A stretch of DNA of 37,640 bases from an uncultured virus (IMG/VR IMGVR_UViG_3300021247_000307) (Duplodnaviria; Heunggongvirae; Uroviricota; Caudoviricetes): the IMG/VR virus record IMGVR_UViG_3300021247_000307, one strand, 5' to 3'. Shown in pieces: positions 16,216 to 31,221 of the stretch (positions are counted from its first letter, which is position 1; every line of letters starts with the position of its first letter). Both the position numbers and the translations under genes were made by a program. Below the pieces are notes generated by a model, which saw only the letters and a program-made list of their open reading frames with translations, had not been told where the DNA came from and did not search any database.

Positions 16216-19200
16216 ATGGCAGCACCTTCAGTAATAGAAAACGATAAAGGAACTCCTACATATATTAGTCCTACAGCAAAAGATAATTTTCAATTACCTT
16301 CTACTGTTAAACGTATTCCTGTTAATATAGGAACTAGTATTGAACCAAGTATGCCATTAAGTTCTGAATACTTAGAAGGTTATGCTTTTAATAGATTAGG
16401 ATTAAATCCTAAAACTCCTGAACAATATCAATATCAAGCACAATCTTCTTGGGATGCTTTTAAGAATGGATTAACTCAATTTGGTGCTGAAGCTATTCTT
16501 GGTACAGTAAAATCTGCTGCTACATTATTAGATTTACCGCAATATGTAAATATTGCAATGAATAAAGAAAAAGAATTTAATACAGTATTTGGTAGTTATA
16601 TAGATGAGTTAGCTGAAGGAGTTAGAGAAAGAAATCCTGTATTTGGTACTGAAGAAGTTGAGTTAGCTAATCCTAAATTCTGGGCATCATTACTTCCTGA
16701 TTTAGGAACTACTGTATCATTATTTGTTCCTACTGGAGCTGCTGTAAAAGGATTATCATTAATTACTAAAGGTATAATAGGTGCTAATAAAGCTGGAGGT
16801 TTAGCTGGTAAAGTAGCTAACCACATGTTAAAGAATAGAGAAACTTACAAAGGAGTTGGTGCTGCAATGATTTCAAGAACTATGGAATCAAGTCTTGAAG
16901 CTGAAGGAACACTAAAAGAATCTTATGAGAAATATCTATCTGAAGGATATGGTGATGAACAAGCTAAACAAATGGCTGGTGAAGATGCTAGAAATACTTA
17001 TGTAGCTAACTTACCATTAGTATTACTAGATGCTGTACAATATACTTCATTGTATAAAGGAATGTTTAATCCATTAAGAGGTGCTAGAGCAGCAGAAAGA
17101 GCATTAGCAAATACTACAAGTAATGCTATACTTAAAGCTGCAAGAGGTGTGTATAAAGTTGGTAAAGCATTATCTGGACCAGCAATGGAAGCTGGAGAAG
17201 AACTATTACAGTTTGGTATTCAGAAAGAAGCTAGTAAAACAGATTCATCTGTTAATACTTTATTAAATGCTATATCTAATCTTCCTAATTATGTATCAGA
17301 CCCAGAAGCACAGAAAGCTATGATTAGTGGTGCATTTGGTGGTGGTGTATTTGAAGGATTAAGTTATGCACAACGTAAACTATTTAAACAAGATGCTGAA
17401 ATAGATAATGATTTAGAAGCTGGTAGAGTTGCTGGAGCGCATTATAAATCTATGAAAACATTCATGGATATTATAGATGAAGATAGATTAAAAGAAGAAA
17501 AGTTAATAAATGAAGGTAAATTAAATCAATATATACCTAAAGCTGATAGTTTTTTAGAAGCTGCTAAACTTGATACTGATTCTTTTACTCCAGAAGATAT
17601 TGATAATTTAGTTAAATTAAAAGATGATTATTATACTAAATTAAAAGATTATACTAACAAAGGATTTAGTGGTGATATGCTCAACAAAATAGTTGAGGAA
17701 GATATGAAAGCTACTATATTTAGTAATTTAGAAGAAAAGTTAAAAGTTACTAAACCAAGTTCACCACAACTTACAGATAAAGAATTAAGACTTAAAGCAT
17801 TAAATTTACTAGAAGAAATGGAATCTGGTAATACTAATTTAATGAAGTCTAGTAAATTAAAATCTGCTGAAATAATTAAAGAAGTTAGAAAAGAAAAAGC
17901 ATTATTATTAGCAGAAATGCAAGCAGATTCTACTTTCGACCCAGTAAAATTAAATCGTAAAATTAAACCTGATTCTAAATATAGAGAAGCATTAACTGTA
18001 CAATCTAATATTGAAACTGCTAAAATACTAGCTAATATTGCTAATAATAAATTAGAAGAATATACTAATCCTGATAAACTTATTGATGATATCGAGATTG
18101 ATAAGATTATAGATAACTATGAAAATTTAGTTGACTATAAAGATAAGTTTACAAACTTTGATGACTATTTAGATTATTTAGATAAACTAAGTACTGAAGG
18201 TGATGAAGATTTAAATCTTGTAATTAATACTATTTATGATGATTTAATAGAAGATGCTCTAGCAAATAAAGAAGAAATAAATCCTAAATTAATAGCTAAA
18301 GTAAAAGATACAGATTTACTTGAATTTAATAAAAATAATTTTGCTGCTGACCCTAATGCTGAATATAATTCTGTAGTATCAACACCAATAAATGCTGAAG
18401 AATCTAATATATATCTTACTGGTAAAAAAGATATTGCATCAGGTTTAGTATTAGAAGATAAAAAAAGTAAAAAGAAAATATTAGTTCTAAGTAAAGATAA
18501 AAAAGGAATAAGAGTATTAAAAGATAATAAAGTTGAAGTAGTAAGTGAAGATTCACTTAATAATACTACAATGCTTGGAACTTATAGAACTGCTGATGTT
18601 AATAATACTAAATATATTGTAACAAATAAGGCTTTAATTAATGTTGCTGATGGTAGTATAAAAACTAATTTCAACAACTTAGCAGATGCTATAGAATTTA
18701 GAAGAGCTACATTAGGTATATTTAGTACATCATCTATTGCTAAAATAGAAGAAGATAGAAAGAATGAATTACAAAATAGTGATTTAAAAATTAGAGATGC
18801 TGAAAAGTTATATCCTAAAGGAGATATTATATTTATTACTACAGATGATAAAGTAACTATACATAAAAAGACATTAGGAATAAAACCATCAGAATTAAAA
18901 GAAGATAGTTTATATTCTTTTAAGTTTGTAAAGAATGGTAAAGAAGTTGATAGAGTATTTAGATATGATATTAAAGAAGGTTTAGTAAAACAAATTAAGA
19001 CTAATGGTACATTAATTGATGACCCTAATTATAAAAGAATAAATGATAGAGAGAATTATATTCAATATCAAGAATTAGATTATGCTGATAAAGCTGAAAG
19101 AGATTTTAAAAACATAAGTCTTATAAATAAAAAGTATGATGCTAAATATGTTGATGAAGTTGCTAATGGTAATATAAGTATTGAAAGTGCTTTAAAGATA

Positions 19201-22200
19201 TTACCTAAATTTAATACTAAACCTCATGATGCTGTAATTAAAGCATTAGAGGATAAATTAGATTTAAATGAAAACTATGATATTAGAACAGAATTAAATA
19301 AGAATTTAAAAGATGTAGATAGTAATTCAAAAACAGTAAATACATTATTACTAGAAAGAGAAAGATTAACTGCTGAAGGATTAGAATTATTAGAAAGTTT
19401 TACTCCAGAAGAATTAGAAAAAGAATTTAAAGATATTATATCAGATGATTATGAACCAATAGTAATTCCTGAAGGAAAAGCTATATCTATTACATTAAAC
19501 GATGGAAGTAAACTACAACTTACAAGTGGTACTGGAATTGTATTCTTGAGAAATAAGAAAACTAATAAGATTAAATTAAGTGTATTAAGTTTTGAAAATA
19601 CAGATAATGAATTAATAAGATTATCTATAGGACAAGCATTTGTAGAAAAAGTATTAGGCATTCCAGTTTATGATGCTAGTGTAGTAGTAATGGATGGAAC
19701 TAGTGTTACTGAAACAGATGTATCATTATTAAGTATATTTACTTATGATAATGTTCAAATGCCTTACAATTCAGGATATGATTATATTAATGCAAATACT
19801 GGATTATCAGATAAAGATAGTAAGATAGAAGATTTAAAAAATAAGTATGAAACATTAAATAATTATATTAAAGATTTAATAAATAAAGGACAAACTACTG
19901 TAGAACAATTAGCTAATGTAATTAAAACAGGATTATCAGCTATTGATAAGAATACAGATACTAATCTTACTAATGAAAGAAATAAACTTAATGAACAATA
20001 TAGATTACTTACATCAAATTCTAACATTAAAGATTTAGTTGTAGTAAATAAAAGTGATTTAACTAAAGCTAGACAAATAAGTCTTGATTTTACAGGTGAT
20101 ACTATTCAAAATGATAAAGTTGCTGATATAGAAAGAAGAAGACAAGAAGAATTAAATAAAGAAACTCCCATAAAAAATGAAAATATAACAGTAGATTTTG
20201 GCGGAGGTGTGTCTGTTAAATATCAAGTTATTACTTATAAAGATGGTAGTGTAAAAATTTCTACAGTTTCTGAAAAATCTAAAAGATATAGTAGACTATC
20301 TGATGAAGCTTTTAAAGACTATGCAAAAATAGATTTTGAATCAGATGCAAAAGGTATTACAAAAATAGAGGTGGTTAAAGACGATTATAATGATAAAGAA
20401 TCTCAAGAAATCCAGGCTGCTAAAGAAAAAACAATCAATGCTAAATATGATGCAGAATTAGCTGCTTTAGAAGAAGCTAAATCAAAAATAAAAAATAAAT
20501 ATAAAGGTAAATTTATTTATGCTACTCCAGGTTCAGGTAAAACAACTATAGCAAAAGAGTTAGAAGATATTATTGATACAGATGATTTAATGCTAAATGT
20601 AATGTTTGAATTACATCCTGAATTTGTTAGACTTGATAATGAATCTACACAAGAATTTATATTTAGATATGCAAAAGATTATAATAAAGATGAAATAGAT
20701 AAAATAGTTTTAGGTAGAGTAATGAATTTACTTGCAGAAGGTAAGACAGTACTTACTGGTACAAGAGCTTTTTTACCTAAAGTTAATTTTAGTTTTAGTA
20801 TTGATAATGAAAATGTAAGAAATAGATTAAAAGATAAGTTAGATAGTTTTAAAGCAGATGAAGCAATTAATCTTGCTAAAGAAATTAATGATTTAAGAAC
20901 TGAATTACTTGATAAAACAACTAAATCAAAAGAAAAAAATGCAAGACTAAAAGAAACTGATATAAATAAAAATTCATTCTTTGTAATGGATGGAAAAGTT
21001 AATCAGTATGCAGGATTTAATGTATTAATAGGAAAACAAGAAGTTCTAGCTAATGTTGATGCTAATAATAATGTTACTGTAGATGGTAAACTTCCAACAA
21101 AGAATAATATAGTTAAGATATTAAATAAATATAATGAAATAGATATTGATGATTATTACAGTAAACCTCCATTAGTATTAAATAATGAATTAAAAGGTTC
21201 TGTAATATACATGGATGAAGTAACAATGGATTTATTTTTTAATGGTAATAAAGAATTTGAAGATGCTGTAGATATAGAAAATATAAAAAGTAGTCTTAGA
21301 GATATAGGAGTTTATTTTTATGATGATATATTAAATGCTAATCCTGATACAGTAGATACTTTTATAAAAGAAATATTAGCTAATAATCAAGCTGTAATAA
21401 AAGTATTAAATACTGAGAATCCTGAACTAATAGATGGAGTTAAATCTAAAATGTTTAGAGTAAATCCTAAAACATTATTAGATTTTACATTAGATAAATA
21501 TAATATAGATAATGTAAAAGATGCTCAACCTTATGTAAAACAAGTTAATGATTTTACTACATCATTAAAAACTACTCCATCAAGTGAAGTAAGTAATTAT
21601 ACTGATTTAGTAGGTAGTTTATTTACTACTACACCTTTTACTGAAATATCAGATAGTTTTGCAAGATTAAAAGTATTATTAAATACAAAACTTCAAAGAT
21701 ATGTAAATACTTATAAAGAATATACATTAGAACCTGTACTTGAAAAGATAGAAGTTGATATAGATATTAATACTATTGAAGAAGAAGATACTTACATGCA
21801 AAGTGATTTGTATGAAACACAACCTGTAAAACCTGATAAAGCATATCCTACTTTTGCTACTGAAGCAAAGGCATCAGAACAAGCAGAAAACTGGTTAAAA
21901 TTATTTAATCAATATAAAGATACAAATTATACTATTGAAGATTTAAGTAATAAATATCTTAAAGCTACAGTAAATTCTGTTGTAGAATATTTATATATAG
22001 ATGCTAATACTATAATAGGTTTTATTAATATAAAAGGTGAAGATGTTCCTATTGGATTATTAGATACTCTTGAAAGAGTTAGAGAAAAGAAAATTAGATA
22101 TAATACAACAAATATTGCTCCAGCATATCTTGAAAAACTATGGAATATTATAAGAGAACAGAATTTAAGTGCTGGAGCTATTGTACAAACTGATACTACA

Positions 22201-25200
22201 AATTTTGTAGTAAGTAATATTCACTATAATGGTTTACATTCACAAAGAACAAATATAGGTAACTTAAGAAAACATGCTAAGTTTTCAACATTTGCAATAG
22301 TTAAATTAAGAGCTGACAACTTTGAAGTTGTTTATGGTAATGAATCTATATCTAGTACTGATATATTAAATTATAATGCAGTTAAATCTAAAATTGGTAA
22401 TAATGCTAGTCACTATTATATTACTGTAAAAGTATCAACTAATAAATATAAATTATTTCCAATTAGAATAGATGATTTAAGTTATGATGAAAATGATATA
22501 AAAGCAAATATTAATAAGATTAAAAATGATGAAAAGTATGTTAAAGATAATTTTTTTCATTTTGGTTTAATAAATAAATTAGCTAAATCATTAAAAGGTA
22601 ATCCAGATATTGATAATATATTAAAAGATGCTATATTAAAAGATCATGCTTTAAAAAATGTAGTAACTAAAGGAAAAGGATTTTGGTCAAATCCTAGTGA
22701 TGTTAATTCTTTAAATGTTAATATAGGAGTTAATGGTTATCTTAATACTAACTTTATAATTAATAGTAAAGAAAAAGTTGCTATAAAACCAACAGTTAGA
22801 AGAAAACCACCTCCAGCAAAACGTTCAAGAGCTAAAGGATTAGTAACAAGAAAGTTATCAAGAGAGAATGCTTTAAATAATCTTAAAAGAATATTACCTG
22901 AAGGTTATGATGTTAGATTCTATGAAAATCTTATTAAAGAAGGTAATGATTATTTATGGGGTTATGTATCAAAGAATATAATAGGACTATCAGACCAAGG
23001 TAGAATTGGTGAAGAATATCATGAAGCATTTCACGTTGTATTCAATGCTTTTATTAATCAAACAGAAAGAGAAAGATTATTAGGTCATATAAAGAATTAC
23101 TATAAATCAAGACTGGATAATAGTTATACAGATGAACAACTAAATGACCCAGACTTTGCTGAAGAATTACTAGCTGATTTGTATAGAGATTTTGCATTAG
23201 CATACGATGAACAAGGTAATAAAAGTTTATTAGACTGGATAAAAGATATTCCTAGTGCTATTATAAGATTCTTTAAAAGATTATTTAATCTTGAAACAAG
23301 TATTCAAAGAGATAAATCTAAACTAGATAAATTCTTTAAGTCTATTAGTACTGGTAAATTCACTAATAGAAATGCAGAATTTATAAATTCTTTTAAAGCT
23401 AGTAAAGCTACAACTTATAAAAATGGAACTGAAAAACAACAGATAGTAAATATGTTAAATAGTTTATCAGCACAAATGAATGTGTATGATTTAGCTAAAC
23501 CTGAAACTATTATTAATGATGATTTTCTTGAACCTGAAAAAAGTGTATTAACTAATTTAAATAATAAAAACTCATTAGTTAATGTATTTATTAATGAATT
23601 AAATAAAAAGTTACAGTTATCAGAAGATGAAGGTGGTTTTATAATGAATGATGAAAAGTTAGATGTAATTAGAAGAGTAGTAAGAGGATTAAGATTTGAT
23701 TTAGATGTTGAAAATATTGATAATGTATTAACTATTATTAAATTAAAAGAAACTCCTAAGTTTGGAGAAATACCATCTAGTATAATGGCAACATTTGCTG
23801 AACATGGTTATATGATTAATGATATTGATATAGAAAATGTATCAGAAATAGATTTTGATGATAGTGATGAAAAAAACTTACAAGATGCTTCTGAAGATGA
23901 TCCAGCTTTCGATGAAGAAGAACCTAATCAAAAAGAAAACTATCAAATAAAGAATTATATAAATCCACCACATCTTAAAATAAGAGGTGTAGCTAAATCA
24001 TTTTTATCTTTAATACGAAAAGATGAAGTTGATATGTTTGGATTTAATATTAACTTTAACTATAGTCCTCAAGAAGCTGCTAATAAATTCTTATTAGCAT
24101 TTGGAAATACTGATGACCCTATTCAATTAAAAGAAAAGATAGCTTTTAGAAATGAAACAGAAGAAAATAAACCAGAAGAGTTTAGAGATAATTTCTATAT
24201 AGATTTGTATGAACTTATAGAAGTACATGAAGTAATGCCAAAAGAAAAAGTGTATAACTCATTATGGGATACACTTGGTAAATTAGCTAAAGCTGATTTC
24301 TATAATGTAGTTGTATCTTCAGTTGGAAGTGATGTTAAGATTTCAAGAACAATGGCTAACCTTGATGATTTAAAATATAAGATTAAAAATAAGTTATTTA
24401 ATTTAGTTGATATACAAGAAAAGTTTGCAGAACAACGTAGTAATCTTCCTAGTAATGCTAATCTTGTTATACAATTTGTTAATACTATTAATATTGAAGA
24501 ATTAAATGCAGCATCAGAATTTGATGATTTATCTAATACCAATAAAAAAGCTATAGTAGCATTAATGAATTATATAGGATATAATGATTCATTTGAAAAT
24601 GAGAATTATAGTAGTATATACTCATTAAATTATAAAGGTGATTTAGTACCATTTTTAGCATTAGCTAAAAGACTTACTCCTGTAAATAAAGCTGTTGAGA
24701 TATATAAAAATAAATCTTTAATAGATATAATAAGTTCTAAATTACCATCTGATATATCTAGTACACATAAAACTGTAGATGGTAAATTATACTACGAATG
24801 GCAAGTTCCTAATGCTGTAAATAGAACTATTAAAGAATTAAATAAACCTGCTAATGAAAGAGAAATAATAAAAGATAGATTGTATGCTGATTTACCATTA
24901 ATGAATACAAACTATACTTTTAAGTATGAAGAAAGCAATGGTACAATAGATAAACTTACTGGTAAAAATAAAGAAGTATCAAACTATACAGCAAGAGATT
25001 TATTAACTGAAATAATAATAAGTGCGCAAGAAGGAAGTTTTGTAACTCCAGTATTGTCAGATTCTGGAAGACAAGTATATGTTGGAGGTATTAATTTTCT
25101 TAGTTATGATGATGCTTTAGCTGATTTAGTAAAATTAGCACTTATAGAAAATAATAGAATATTAACAAAAGGTGATAAATTTTTTAAGAATTATAATCTT

Positions 25201-28200
25201 AATCAAAAAGAATCATATATATTTCCAACTATAGATAGAAAACTGTTTCCAGAAGAAATAGTTACTTTTGAAGATTATACACCAAAAAATTATACTCAAA
25301 AGTATGGTGATTTAAAGAATGAAATAGAGAAAGTTATTAGTCAAAGAGCAGAAGAATTTAATAAAACATTGGCTAAAGAATTTATATACTTAGATAAAAG
25401 TATAATAACTAATACTATATTAACATTACCAAAAGAAAGTGAAACACAGCAACAAATAAATGAAAAAACATACAATAATGCTAAAACATTATATGCTAAT
25501 CATATACTAAATCATACACAATTAACTTATATATTATTAGGAGACCCTGCTTACTATAAGAACTATGAAGATTTAGTTAAAAGGTCTAAACAAATGATAT
25601 CTCCATCATCAATAGCTAATATATACAATACATTTGATATAAAAGTAAGTAGTAGAAATTATTATGATACAGATTTTACTGAAGATTTAATTTCAAGAAT
25701 ATCAGTATCTCAAGATATGAGAGTATCTATTAAAGCTGACGTTGAACGTGAATCTTTAAATAATGAACAATTAAAAGCATTAGGATTAGAAAAAGAATAT
25801 GAAAAGAATAATCTTACAGATGCTCAATCTTATATAGATGATATTGCTTACAGAGATAGATTAATTGCTGAAGGTACTTGGACACAATTACATCAGGATT
25901 ATATGGATATGTCAATGAATGGATTTCCAGCATCAAAACTTACTATAGAAAAAGCAAAACAATCTGGTAAATCAATAGAAGATATAAAGAAACAAAGTCC
26001 TGTAGAAGTTGTTAAACCTTTCTACTTTAGTATGATTAACTATGAAAAAAATGGAAGAGATTATTTAGTTCCATTTCAAAAGAAAGATTCAGAGTTTAAA
26101 ATATCACCATTCTACGGATTAAAGACTATCAATGGTATAAAGAATAGTATGTATAATCCTTATTACTATAAGTTATTAACTGAAGAATTTGGTTATACTA
26201 TAGAACAAGAAGTTATAGTAAATGGTGAAGTTACTAAAAAACATATTATAGGATTTGATAAAGAAAATAGAAAAGCTGATGTAGTATCATTTGAATCAGC
26301 TATTAAAGTATTTACTGATAAAAACCATATACAAAAAGTAGACCAACCATTTGATGAAACTAAAGTAATAACAGTACCATTTAAGTATTGGGGAAGACAA
26401 ATGGAAACTCCTAAAGGACATTTTAATAAAAATGTATCTCTTGGAACACAAATAAGAAAGTTAATTGTATCAAGAATTACTGGAAAAGATGTAACAATTA
26501 AAAGACAAAATGGAACTCAATCAACACCTAATGAATTATTAAAAGAATATAATAAATTATTAGTAGAAGATATTAAAAGAGGTGAAAAAAGATTTAGAAA
26601 ATCTATTGAAACTAATGGAGCTATTGATGGTAAAAAGATATTAAATCTTATTAAAGCTGAATTTTTAAGTAGAAAGAAACCACTACAATACTTAGAGGCA
26701 TTAGAGTTATTAAATAGTGGTGCTAGTTATAATGAATTAATTACTAGAATACCTATATCACATCCATTTCATTCACTACAAATACAAACTATACTAAATA
26801 GTTTACATCGTAATAAAGTTAGTAAGTTAAAGTTTAAGAATGGATTTAAATTAGCTAACGCATCTAGTGTAGGATTTGAAAGACAACCAAAAATAGTATT
26901 TAATAATCCTGCTAATCCTGAAGAAGGTATTAAACATTTTGAAGTCTATGCTCCAATACATGATACTAGATTGTATGAGTTTGTAGATGAAGTAAGTGGA
27001 TTAATTCCTAAAGAAAGAATGAGTGAGATAGAAACTAAATATCCAGGAATCTTAGATGGTGTAGTATATCGTATTCCTACTGAAGATAAATACTCCATGT
27101 ATAAAACTAAGATAATAGGATTTGTAGTAGATGAAGTAGGTGCTATATTTATGCCTGATGTAGCTACAACTCGTTCAGGATTAGATTTTGATATAGATAA
27201 AATGTTTGGTTTCTTTAAAGATGGTACAGAAACAACAATAGATGGTAAGAAATATATAGGACTTACTCCAGAACAATATGCTAAAAGAAGTAAGTATGCT
27301 ATAGATACTTTTGAATTTAATGAGGATTATAATGATTATCAAGCTCAAGTTATATCTGATAATGCTAAACTTGATATTATGATGGATGTATTATCATCAG
27401 AATATACTGTAATACCACAAATGAAACCTGGAGGATTTGAAGCAATGGAAGAACATGCTTTAGAGTTAGAATATATAACTATATTAAAAGAAGGTCACAC
27501 AAATAATTTAGGTGTAAAAGAATTATATGAATATGAAGAATTTAAAGAAAAATTAGATGATTTTAAACTATTAAGTAAATCAGTTAAACGTGAATTAGTA
27601 AAATCAAAAACAGAATTTTGGAATATAGTAAATATATCTAATACTATAAACAGAATGAATCTTGGTAAACAAGTATTAGGTCTTGCAGCTAATTATAATG
27701 CAATGTCTGCTGTTGTTGAAAGTAAAACTATAATTGAAAGACCTGGAAGAGTTATAAAAGGAGATATTAAACAAGCTATAACATATAATGGAAATAATTT
27801 ATTATTAAATCCAACATCATTATTTGATTTAGATAATAACTTAAAGTATGAAAATACTTCTATGCTTGTTGCAGCTTCTGCTGATAATGGTAAAACTCCA
27901 ACGTTAGAACCATTAGGATATGATTTAAAATCTTTTAACTTATACATGGCATTAACTGGATATGGATTTCCTAGAAGAATAATTGAAAAGTTATTAGTTA
28001 TAAATAATATACCTGATATTAAAGATTTTATGGATAACGTAAGAACTGAAAAGTTAGATACTGATATAACAGAAGATAAATTAGAATCTGTTTTATTTAA
28101 TCATAAAGCTGTTGAAGTAGAATCTATATTATATACATTAAATCATTTATTAAATTCAAAAAGAACTAAAGCTGTTGGTAAAAATATGTCACAGTTGTTA

Positions 28201-31200
28201 AAGAATTTAAAGATTGGTGATAGTGGATTACAGAGTAATACTTTTGATAACATGATGACTTCATTAGATTATAAAGAATATATTAAAAAATTAGAAAATA
28301 AAGCTAATTATTTTAATATTATAACAGATGAAGAATCATTTAATTATGAATCAACAAAGAAAATGTTTGAAGGATTAGATATTATTACAGATATAACTAA
28401 AATTCCTGTAGAATTTGGTGCTGTACTTAGAAAGTATAAAATAAAACCTGAATATTATCTTGATTTTTATAGTGCCGTATATGCTTATATTACTAGAAAT
28501 GAATATGAAGCATTTATGTCACCACAACAAGTAACAGACCCTAAACTTAAAGATAAAAAAGTACAATCTATATTAAATTCTGTTAATTACTTAAAGGATT
28601 TTAAAGAAAATTTTCCAGATAATCTATTTCTTAAACAATTAAGTCTTAATGATAATAATAAAATTATATTCACAGAACAAAGAAAGAAAGATGATTCATT
28701 GATTAATACTACAATGAATGATTTTGAAAACTTATTAAATTCTGATGAAGTAGTTGAAGTAAAAGATAAATATGATGGTAAATTTGTAAATATTAAAGTA
28801 TCTGATTTCGCTAATGATTTAGCTTATTATAGTATACAGGCTTATGGATTTGGTTATAACTATGAATCATTCTCTTATATTATACCTCCAGCATATTATG
28901 ATAATCATAGAGATTATGTAGAAACTGTAGATAAAAAGATGAAAGAATATATTGCTAATAACAATAGGTTTAATAATATATTTATCGAGTATGCTTTAAA
29001 TAATCCTAAGAATATAGAAGATGTAGGAACTCTACCTTTAGATTTAAGTCAAATGGTAAATAATTTAGTTGAATTTGGTTCTTTTGCTTATCAACCTTTA
29101 GATAATGGTAAATCATCTTTTAATAATATATTTTTGTTTAATAATAAAAGTTTTATAAAACTTGAAAATGAAATATTTGAAAATAAAACTCCTGATTTAA
29201 TATATAGAGTAGGTGATGAAACTATTGTAAAAGTATTTGAAAAGAATAATGAAAGTTTTTTTATTATAGCTAATATAAATAAACCAGAAAATATTGATTT
29301 TAAAACATTAAGTAATACTTTAGAAGGAGTAACTAAATCACATTATCCTAATGAACCTAGAAGTAAACAAAATAGATTAAAAGATTATGGATTGTTTACA
29401 CAAGAGTTTTATTTAAAATCATTTAATAAAGAAGGTATAAAGTTTGAACCAAAAGCAGCTAAAGAAATAGTTGAAAAAGGTACTGATACTCCAGAACTAG
29501 CTACTGTATTAAATACAGAAGTTTTATCTATAACTAATATATCGGAAGGTAAATCAGAGATAATTAGATTATTATCTGATATAAGTAAAACTACTGCTTC
29601 AAGTATTGAAGATGTAATTAATGGTAACTTTAAATATGATAATAAGTTTTTAACTAACTATACTAATGTTACATTTGATAAAACAACTAATGACATAACT
29701 ATTACTGAAAGAAATTATTTAGAACAAGAAGATCGACAAACATTATCAGATGTTATTCCAATGTTAAAGGAAATCTTAAATGATTATAATAAGAATAAAC
29801 AAGTTGAAGTAGAAACTTCTACTCAACAATCTGAAGTAATTACACCTCAAGTTAATCAAGATAAAATTGTTACTTACACACCAGTAGGTAAAACACAACA
29901 AACATATACTATTCGTGGTAGTCAAATATTTAATAAAGACGGTATTGAAGTATTTAAAGAAGATAGTAGAGACCGTAATAAGATATTTGCAAATCTCGCA
30001 ATACAAGAAAAGAGAGCTGTTATAGTTACTTGGAAAGATAACAAGTATGTAGTTAATAACAATAATAAAATCATATCTGTTAAAACTGGTGATATGATGA
30101 AATGGAGTCCTGAAAATGGAGATTATAAAGGAATTATAGCTGAAGCAAATAAATTATTTAAATCTCAACAACCTGAATCCAAAACTGAAGTACAATTATT
30201 ATCTAATAATAACAATAAAATATTAGTAAATAATGTAGATTATGATAAAATAAAATCAATATTAAATAATATAAACATTAGTACATTAGATAATTTATCA
30301 TGGTTTACTCCTAAAATTATAAAAAATTATACTGGAGATATAATAAAAGGAACTTATGAGAAAGCTATTTTTGAAACTAAAAAAGAAACTTTAATTAGAA
30401 TTATAAATGAATTAGAATCATTAAAAGGTATAAATAATGAATTAGATTCATCTTTAGATTATTTAATATCTAAAATTGTTGAAGATGTAAAATTAAATTA
30501 TATTGTAGATAATTATAAATTACCTAAAAATTATACTCTTAAAGATTTTAAAGATATAATACAAACTATAAGATTTACTATAAAACATAATTTTAGTTAT
30601 GCAAAAGAATTTAATGATAAGATAAAATACTTATTAGATAATATTACTATAAATCAAGTTAAATCTCAACAATCTGAATTTCAAACTGAAATAAATATTT
30701 ATGCTGGTACTAACGAGAATGCTGAATTAAGTAATTTTTATATTAGACCTTTTGAATTATCTAAAAATTTATTAGATTTTTTAAATAAACAAGGAAGTGA
30801 TTATTCTAATATTAATTATAAATCTGTAGAACAAGCTTTTCAAAATATTAAAGTATCTTATAATAATACAGGATTTAATGATACTTTAGATAAAGATATA
30901 CTTTCTACTACAGATGGAAGAGAATTAAGAAGATTAGGACAGAAAATAGATTTAGATGTAACTAAATGGAATAAAGATTCTTCATATATAATGAAAGAAT
31001 TAATGTTACAATCTTTTAGAAAAAATCCAGATGCTCTTGCTAAATTATTAGCTACAGGTAATGCTACTCTTACACATAAATATAATGGAGTAGAACAAGA
31101 TAATGGTAGATTCTCTAAAATACTTATGGAAGTTAGAGATGAATTAAGAGGAACTACACAACAAGATACAAATGATTACGAAACTGGTAATGGATTTAAT

Positions 31201-31221: not shown

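Follow-up and report, generated by a model that had tools for sequence, protein, structure and literature searches.

The stretch of DNA described here belongs to an uncultured virus of the Caudoviricetes (IMG/VR record IMGVR_UViG_3300021247_000307), and its full length of 37,640 nucleotides (nt) is referred to as the window. It covers a block of structural and transcription genes from a crAss-like phage with AT-rich DNA (GC 0.27), in which families of virion structural proteins are followed by two giant open reading frames (ORFs). The first of these encodes P0001, a protein of 5001 amino acids (aa) whose last 466 residues form a cassette array, a series of domains each opened by the same short linker, which is the subject of this report. 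The features of the gene and its surroundings are collected in Table 1.

Table 1. Features of the P0001 gene, its C-terminal array and the adjoining region (window coordinates).
Feature	Position	Strand	Remarks
P0001, giant ORF	16216..31221	+	single 5001-aa frame; core aa 1-4535, then variable C-terminal cassette array
HEAFH (HExxH, zincin-like motif)	23020..23034	+	aa 2269-2273; invariant in 21 aligned proteins
DFDIDK, DxDxD catalytic-type motif of crAss-like virion RNA polymerase	27184..27201	+	aa 3657-3662; invariant in 21 aligned proteins
Linker 1, TQQSE, core/array junction	29821..29835	+	
Module 1 (family A), 113 aa	29821..30159	+	function not assigned; two predicted beta3-alpha repeats
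Linker 2, KSQQPESKTEV	30160..30192	+	
Module 2 (family J), 167 aa	30160..30660	+	function not assigned; predicted helical
Linker 3, KSQQSEFQTEI	30661..30693	+	
Module 3 (family E), NADAR	30661..31158	+	PF08719 profile match
C-terminal tail and fourth QQ junction	31159..31218	+	tail (QQDTNDYETGNGFNSDNCLT), ~20 aa; Cys4999 at 31210-31212, invariant in 21 aligned proteins
Conserved downstream flank	31223..31798	+	72-aa ORF (31228-31446) and start of 2058-aa gene

P0001 was initially annotated as an RNA polymerase (RNAP), and this assignment is supported by the DFDIDK motif and by distant homology. A tblastn search with the region around the motif retrieved 106 phage records, the best of them crAss-like genes annotated as 'putative RNA polymerase' (27% identity, E 1e-32), and 66 IMG/VR loci also match the RNAP region. 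As a PDB sequence search with aa 2401-4000 gave no match, the view of P0001 as a giant protein containing a crAss-like virion RNAP rests on the motif and this homology. RNAP-associated giant proteins have been detected in crAss001 virions by mass spectrometry, according to the available part of that study (PMC10172136), and by homology to the crAss-like RNAP genes P0001 would be packaged in the virion and enter the cell with the DNA. The core also carries a P-loop (ATPGSGKTT; weak AAA_18 match) and the HEAFH motif, which recurs (HEAFH or HEAWH) in six of 13 distant homologs examined; the region around it (aa 2151-2450) gave no Pfam, NCBIfam, peptidase-profile or PDB sequence match. Just upstream of the P-loop lies a stretch (window about 20100-20490, aa 1295-1425) with no consensus among the 21 aligned proteins, which may be another variable slot within the core.

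Translation confirmed the proposed division of the C-terminus into three modules, each opened by a QQ[S/P]E linker, with a weaker QQ behind the last one; this fourth QQ (GTTQQDT, 31150-31170) precedes the short C-terminal tail. Module 3 is a NADAR domain, as the initial annotation had it, and matches PF08719 above the gathering score (E 1.1e-14, 55.5 bits vs a cut-off of 35.1, residues 18-141 of the module) as well as phrog_1017 (E 2.2e-18). It is 93% identical to the terminal module of the related protein P0002 and 85% identical to that of P0008. A NADAR domain also lies at the N-terminus of a 2402-aa protein of the gut crAss-like phage cr126_1 (MT774391.1, L001 3843-8074), and the first part of module 3 is 81% identical to it in DNA over 74 nt.

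For modules 1 and 2, no Pfam, PHROG or NCBIfam family was found at a meaningful score. AlphaFold2 predicted a confident fold for module 1, with a predicted local distance difference test (pLDDT) score of 90.5. A WWE domain was considered for this fold and dropped (Foldseek on the PDB, best E 0.04, TM score 0.24-0.36, root-mean-square deviation 10-12 Å), and it did not reappear in a second comparison; in VIA-align, the best Z was 4.1 over 39-48 residues of one half. The best match of the fold in BFVD, an uncharacterised Alteromonas phage protein (E 5e-4), was not convincing, and the ESM Atlas gave no usable match. The AlphaFold2 model of module 2, built from 3 sequences, reached a pLDDT of 50.5 and was unusable for fold search. 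Module 2 had been noticed as more AT-rich than its neighbours, and its GC is indeed 0.168, compared with 0.283 for module 1, 0.246 for NADAR and 0.254 for the core. It is the lowest-GC 501-nt stretch of the window, as only 0.2% of all 501-nt segments are as low and all of these overlap it, and it looks recently imported.

The linker itself is conserved at the DNA level, its second and third copies having 28 of 33 nt in common, close to the 28 of 32 claimed at first, or 30 of 35 when the preceding TT is counted. The 14-mer that had been reported as shared, CTCAACAATCTGAA, is exact at 29822 and 30665 and occurs with one mismatch at 30164. With up to two mismatches allowed, the 14-nt linker core has three matches only on both strands of the 37.6-kb window, all at module boundaries; shuffled sequences gave a mean of 0.43 matches, and 1 of 100 shuffles reached three. 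The pattern QQ[SPT]E occurs three times across the window's 12 large ORFs, only at the three module boundaries. The linker consensus is x-[KN]-[SN]-Q-Q-[SP]-E-[ST]-Q-T in protein and about CAACAA-YCT-GAA-NCN-CAA-ACT in DNA. In neither model do linker residues score above a pLDDT of about 50, and the linker is thus predicted to be an unstructured element common to all junctions. Four DNA sources provide 13 QQ-type linkers for comparison. Wherever Ser follows QQ in them, its codon is TCT (6 of 6 cases, set against a TCT usage of 31%), and it alternates with Pro (CCT) by a one-base change, which is modest evidence that the linkers are related at the DNA level beyond the protein motif. Searching IMG/VR for the DNA pattern returned only two matches, which are taken as chance because both lie in stretches without an open frame.

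When 5.8 billion proteins were searched and the matches were scored over residues 4300-5001 of P0001, 58 other proteins were returned. The core end is shared by 24 of these, with 73-92% identity in 23 and 48% in the remaining one. No core alignment goes past '...NDYNKNKQVEVETPxQQ', after which mosaics follow, and the C-terminus is thus variable among relatives, as had been predicted. When 22 distinct tails (P0001-17, P0022-25 and locus L069; P0019-21 were left out as identical to P0022) were cut at their linkers, 13 module families (A-M) in 17 arrangements with 31 different adjacencies were obtained, with P0007 mis-segmented in this count (it is actually A-B-tail). QQ[SP]E[ST]QT, sometimes slightly altered, stands at the junctions; the residue before QQ tracks the module on the left, and the residues after 'QT' track the module on the right. 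Eight different modules occur behind 'ANKLFKSQQPE[ST]QT', the end of module 1. In a crude count, 524 of 908 pairwise breakpoints fell within -6 to +10 aa of a linker, where 14.7% would be expected. Doubled junctions occur in L068 and P0023 ('NKQSEVETPIQQSE') and in P0011 ('QQVEVEPSTQQSE'), and such duplications are compatible with repeated recombination at the linker.

The three modules of P0001 differ in how they are distributed. Module 1 is present in 12 of the 24 core-sharing relatives, where it adjoins the core or stands behind module C or a 2-oxoglutarate (2OG) oxygenase, and NADAR in four, of which two have close copies and two have another subtype. Module 2 is present in none of the 24; P0018 and P0060 are the only other proteins in which it was found, and linkers of this kind flank it in both: P0018 is a different giant protein in which module 2 is again followed by NADAR, while P0060 is a fragment in which it stands directly before the tail. 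Searching for the modules in other contexts, as had been suggested, a query of modules 1 and 2 matched 175 cluster representatives, nearly all through module 1, which is located N-terminally, internally or C-terminally in proteins of 91-5772 aa; many of the short ones look like pieces of giant proteins. Compared with P0001, module 1 is 89-98% identical in relatives whose core ends reach 48-86%, and the modules therefore move between lineages. No close relative of the core end, module 1 or module 2 was found in IMG/VR or among the GenBank phages, in which only NADAR and distant RNAP matches turned up.

The module families that could be identified are NADAR (E), two kinds of 2OG-Fe(II) oxygenase, AlkB-like (B), cpYpsA (I), DprA-like modules of the SLOG type (K strongly, H weakly) and a macro-like A1S_2505 domain with weak DarG similarity (M); a PIF1 helicase domain is also found among the domains of relatives. 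Families A, C, D, F, G, J and L gave no family match. The NADAR domain of P0004 also matches Pfam Phage_30_3 below the cut-off (E 1.1e-4, 22.5 bits vs 36). Module C (in P0002, P0005, P0014, P0015, P0023 and P0024) keeps its first ~17 and last ~25 aa ('...ALDYLINKYDWNKQSE') around three unrelated middles, from which it follows that exchange also takes place inside a module frame. Whichever module is last, the tail is retained behind it. A Cys 1-7 residues from the C-terminus is also found in the distant giant homologs checked (13 of P0018-P0059) and in many fragments bearing module 1, and the Cys tail may be a packaging or anchoring signal. P0023 ends in 'KPNKWIN', for which the DNA (L068 7236-7247) reads TGA ATA AAC TAA, the gene having been called with TGA as Trp; the ORFs in the window itself stay open with translation table 11.

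The same boundaries appear in comparisons of DNA with three metagenome loci, L068, L069 and L070, as expected from the claim that breakpoints coincide with the repeats. In L068, homology to the window ends at 29829, just past the CAACAA of linker 1, and restarts at 31223, two bases after the stop codon. In L069, the core is 82% identical over an 842-nt piece up to 29812 (87.8% over 5.4 kb), and module 1 (29807-30186) is 95.8% identical, yet stands behind a different module there, and this difference from the core points to lateral exchange; homology restarts at 31171. The module 1 homology of L069 begins and ends within about 15-27 nt of linker cores. In L070, homology extends to 30208 and restarts at 31165.

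Contigs from natural populations break at the same boundaries. Part of the stretch is contained in 20 sequencing runs from 13 studies (freshwater, wastewater, runoff and estuary), and the share of its words found in any one of them is at most 56%. For four runs, each from a different study (X1-X4), contigs were compared with positions 29000-31800; being contigs, they give neither frequencies nor rare deletions. Their breaks lie at 29828/9, 30156-30189, 30646-30696, 31178 and 31223. Loose ends at 29829 lead into module C (IYSQLG...) in X2, X3 and X4, a 1222-nt contig of X2 links the end of module H to module 2, an adjacency absent among the proteins, and other tail types attach at 31178 and 31223. 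Module 2 itself is present in all four runs nearly unchanged (0 differences over 473 nt in X1). Thus, one module has several neighbours within single samples. A precise 501-nt deletion, suggested as a test, was not seen as a joint in the contigs of the four runs, although contigs drop rare variants and absence is not implied. Joints such as 29829 to 30666 and 30700 to 31204 have short sides, with the intervening sequence not known, and were not read as deletions.

The C-terminus of P0001 is therefore very probably an in-frame array of exchangeable domain cassettes, likely serving as a strain-variable counter-defence toolkit. The array is there, it varies among relatives, and its breakpoints coincide with the linkers in protein and in DNA. 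Recombination would take place within the linker, with the short repeat acting as crossover homology. The layout of the protein is a conserved core, repeated linker-plus-module units, a last linker and a conserved ~20-aa Cys tail, and co-infecting relatives would exchange, insert or delete modules via homologous recombination. The crossovers would fall within the 12-33-nt shared linker stretch or in shared neighbouring modules, and the products would therefore remain in frame and contain whole domains. As the array would be carried on a protein packaged in the virion and entering the cell with the DNA, its modules would act before any phage gene expression. The identifiable modules would reverse or process nucleic-acid base modifications, NAD/ADP-ribose or nucleotide derivatives, and NADAR is described as a phage anti-DarTG1 enzyme in the available part of PMC11825919. 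The domains in the other slots (NADAR, macro/DarG-like, AlkB-like and SLOG-type) fit a counter-defence role by association only, and modules 1 and 2 would be candidate anti-defence effectors.

Several points weigh against this interpretation. No crossover was observed directly, and selection for intact domains could leave junctions at the linkers even with breaks occurring anywhere. Outside the linker interval lie 384 of the 908 pairwise breakpoints, and while some are artefacts of alignments ending where the tails begin, others are real internal mosaics (the middles of module C and the NADAR subtypes); one breakpoint, 31178, falls inside the tail. CAA, GAA and ACT are preferred codons of this AT-rich gene, so that the DNA identity of the linkers largely follows from the protein motif. 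Most relatives are metagenome-assembled, and whole arrangements could be partly chimeric, single adjacencies being safer. Packaging and injection are extrapolated from about 27% identity to crAss-like RNAP genes, and modules 1 and 2 have no functional assignment.

The most serious alternative, although a clearly less probable one, is that the linker is kept for a reason at the protein level, as a flexible hinge or as a cleavage site at which the HExxH domain or a host protease would set the modules free once inside the cell, with exchange running via long flanks (core, shared modules, tail and downstream genes) and the linker not being a recombination substrate. Distant lineages do retain the amino acid motif in different wording ('QQTQTQT' and 'AETQTE' in P0018, 'SQQPETQT' in P0060), the linkers vary synonymously (TCA or TCT before QQ, CAG or CAA), and long conserved flanks lie on either side of the array. 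The invariance of HEAFH and its occurrence in distant homologs would fit such cleavage, and polyvalent proteins have been proposed to be processed by zincin-like peptidases (PMC5512222, available part); the HExxH region, however, has no peptidase family match. Moreover, new adjacencies arose somewhere, and unrelated modules share homology only in the linker, so close to which the module 1 homology of L069 begins and ends. The tracking of the left module before QQ and of the right module after 'QT' is what crossovers in the motif would produce, and the uniform TCT codon for Ser also speaks against this alternative. A hinge or cleavage role is in any case compatible with a role in recombination and does not exclude it.

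It could even be speculated that the linker is a dual signal, both a standardised 'socket' through which any compatible domain could be recombined in frame into a virion-delivered protein, throughout a clade of environmental crAss-like phages, and the cut site of the HExxH domain, with the Cys tail serving in packaging or anchoring and the eight module families without a known family, modules 1 and 2 among them, being new counter-defence proteins recognised solely from their position, but this extended version is doubtful. Here, the Cys tail would force new cassettes to insert upstream of it, and the embedded HExxH domain would free the modules after entry by cutting the linkers.

It is improbable that the variety of modules is mostly an assembly artefact, with assemblers joining strains at linkers or shared modules into chimeras of a few real arrangements. 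Nearly all relatives do come from metagenome contigs, and the Logan contigs of the four runs fragment exactly at the junctions, where the assembly graph branches. However, typical reads are longer than the linkers (33 nt or less), and single reads should span each adjacency, of which there are 31 different ones. A branching graph also needs several real neighbours per module within one sample. Finally, the same arrangements recur across sources: the I-D tail is identical in P0019-22 (ENA and JGI), P0023 equals L068, and P0013 equals L070. It is equally unlikely that the domains are ordinary accessory parts of the transcription machine, handling template or nucleotides and varying by drift, and not conflict effectors. 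They are indeed fused to RNAP, and nucleic acids are what DprA-like, helicase and AlkB-like domains work on. However, the modules turn over faster than the core, and their presence varies among phages with an 80-92% identical core with none universal (module 1 and NADAR included, at the counts given above). In addition, the available parts of PMC11825919 and PMC11543638 describe NADAR and macro domains of the DarG type as enzymes of the antitoxin type or of counter-defence.

With exchangeable cassettes as the preferred reading, the best-fitting concept is a polyvalent protein on a crAss-type RNAP, whose exchange logic resembles that of polymorphic toxins. P0001 combines an RNAP motif, a P-loop, HExxH, modules 1 and 2 and NADAR, and its relatives add 2OG oxygenase, cpYpsA, DprA-like, A1S_2505 and PIF1 helicase domains. 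In the available part of Iyer et al. 2017 (PMC5512222), the polyvalent proteins of phages and conjugative elements are likewise huge polypeptides with many unrelated enzymatic domains, proposed to enter the host with the DNA, to act early in conflict and to release their domains by proteolysis, and the fusion of an N4-type virion RNAP to an HExxH peptidase is a listed theme. In P0001, by contrast, the scaffold would be a crAss-type two-barrel RNAP protein, the variable domains are confined to one C-terminal array between a fixed core and a fixed Cys tail, each junction has the same short linker, also at the DNA level, and near-identical phages carry different sets of modules. The terms NADAR, linker and crAss are missing from the text of PMC5512222.

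The crAss-like RNAP block (phi14:2 gp66; crAss001 gp47/49/50) shares the DFDxD motif, the giant size and the place beside structural genes, and it is described as multidomain with varying protein boundaries (10.1101/2020.03.07.982082, PMC10172136, PMC7886860). The available parts of these papers describe neither a linker-delimited, strain-variable C-terminal array nor a conserved Cys tail, and the RNAP-associated proteins are here fused into one 5001-aa ORF. Stand-alone phage NADAR enzymes against DarTG1 (T4 gp30.3 type; PMC11825919, available part) belong to the same domain family, but in P0001 the domain fills one slot of a virion-protein array rather than being a separately expressed early gene. 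Integron arrays depend on an integrase and attC/attI sites, and their cassettes are separate ORFs, while the present cassettes are in frame within one ORF, and no integrase family turned up among the ORFs of the window.

The C-terminal domains of polymorphic toxins are demarcated by the VENN and PxxxxDPxGL motifs, and the QQ[SP]E[ST]QT-type linker is a demarcating motif in the same sense, though the resemblance is one of logic only. In systems such as CdiA-CT and Rhs (cf. PMC3482391), a conserved short motif borders the constant body and the swappable C-terminal domain, and variants arise by recombination there. The array of P0001 differs in having several tandem slots instead of one terminal slot, in its repair- or hydrolase-type domains instead of toxins, and in belonging to a protein that would be part of the phage virion. 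No immunity gene accompanies it, as the region from 31223 is 93-94% identical in DNA to L068 and L069 despite their different terminal modules, the 72-aa ORF and the next gene being the same whichever module is last. No orphan cassettes were seen in the window. No earlier description of such a cassette array was found in the papers searched, including PMC7886860, PMC11054128 and PMC12386605, subscription-only papers not being covered.

The array offers a positional rule for finding phage counter-defence domains, namely whatever sits between two linkers on this protein, and it has placed eight module families without a known family beside NADAR, macro-like, AlkB-like and SLOG-type domains. In an abundant phage group, it also exhibits strain-level combinatorial turnover of proteins that are pre-made and presumably injected, and this suggests that the contest of defence and counter-defence takes place before the phage makes its first transcript. 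Finally, the short conserved linker is a natural and testable case of in-frame domain shuffling.

An insertion of ~300 nt is found in the core end of L068, P0005 and P0023 (window 29588-29602; L068 5089-5400), and it partly duplicates the neighbouring core, the core segment of residues 361-434 aligning twice. The 72-aa ORF between the two giant genes gave no family match. In the next gene (2058 aa, 31452-37628), a stretch of ~1.77 kb (31799-33573) is not present in L068, whose homology ends at 31798, directly before 'QQEVKEG' (aa 117-118), and restarts at 33574, and in L069 and L070 the divergence sets in at 31853. A QQ may therefore mark a mosaic boundary in the second giant protein too.

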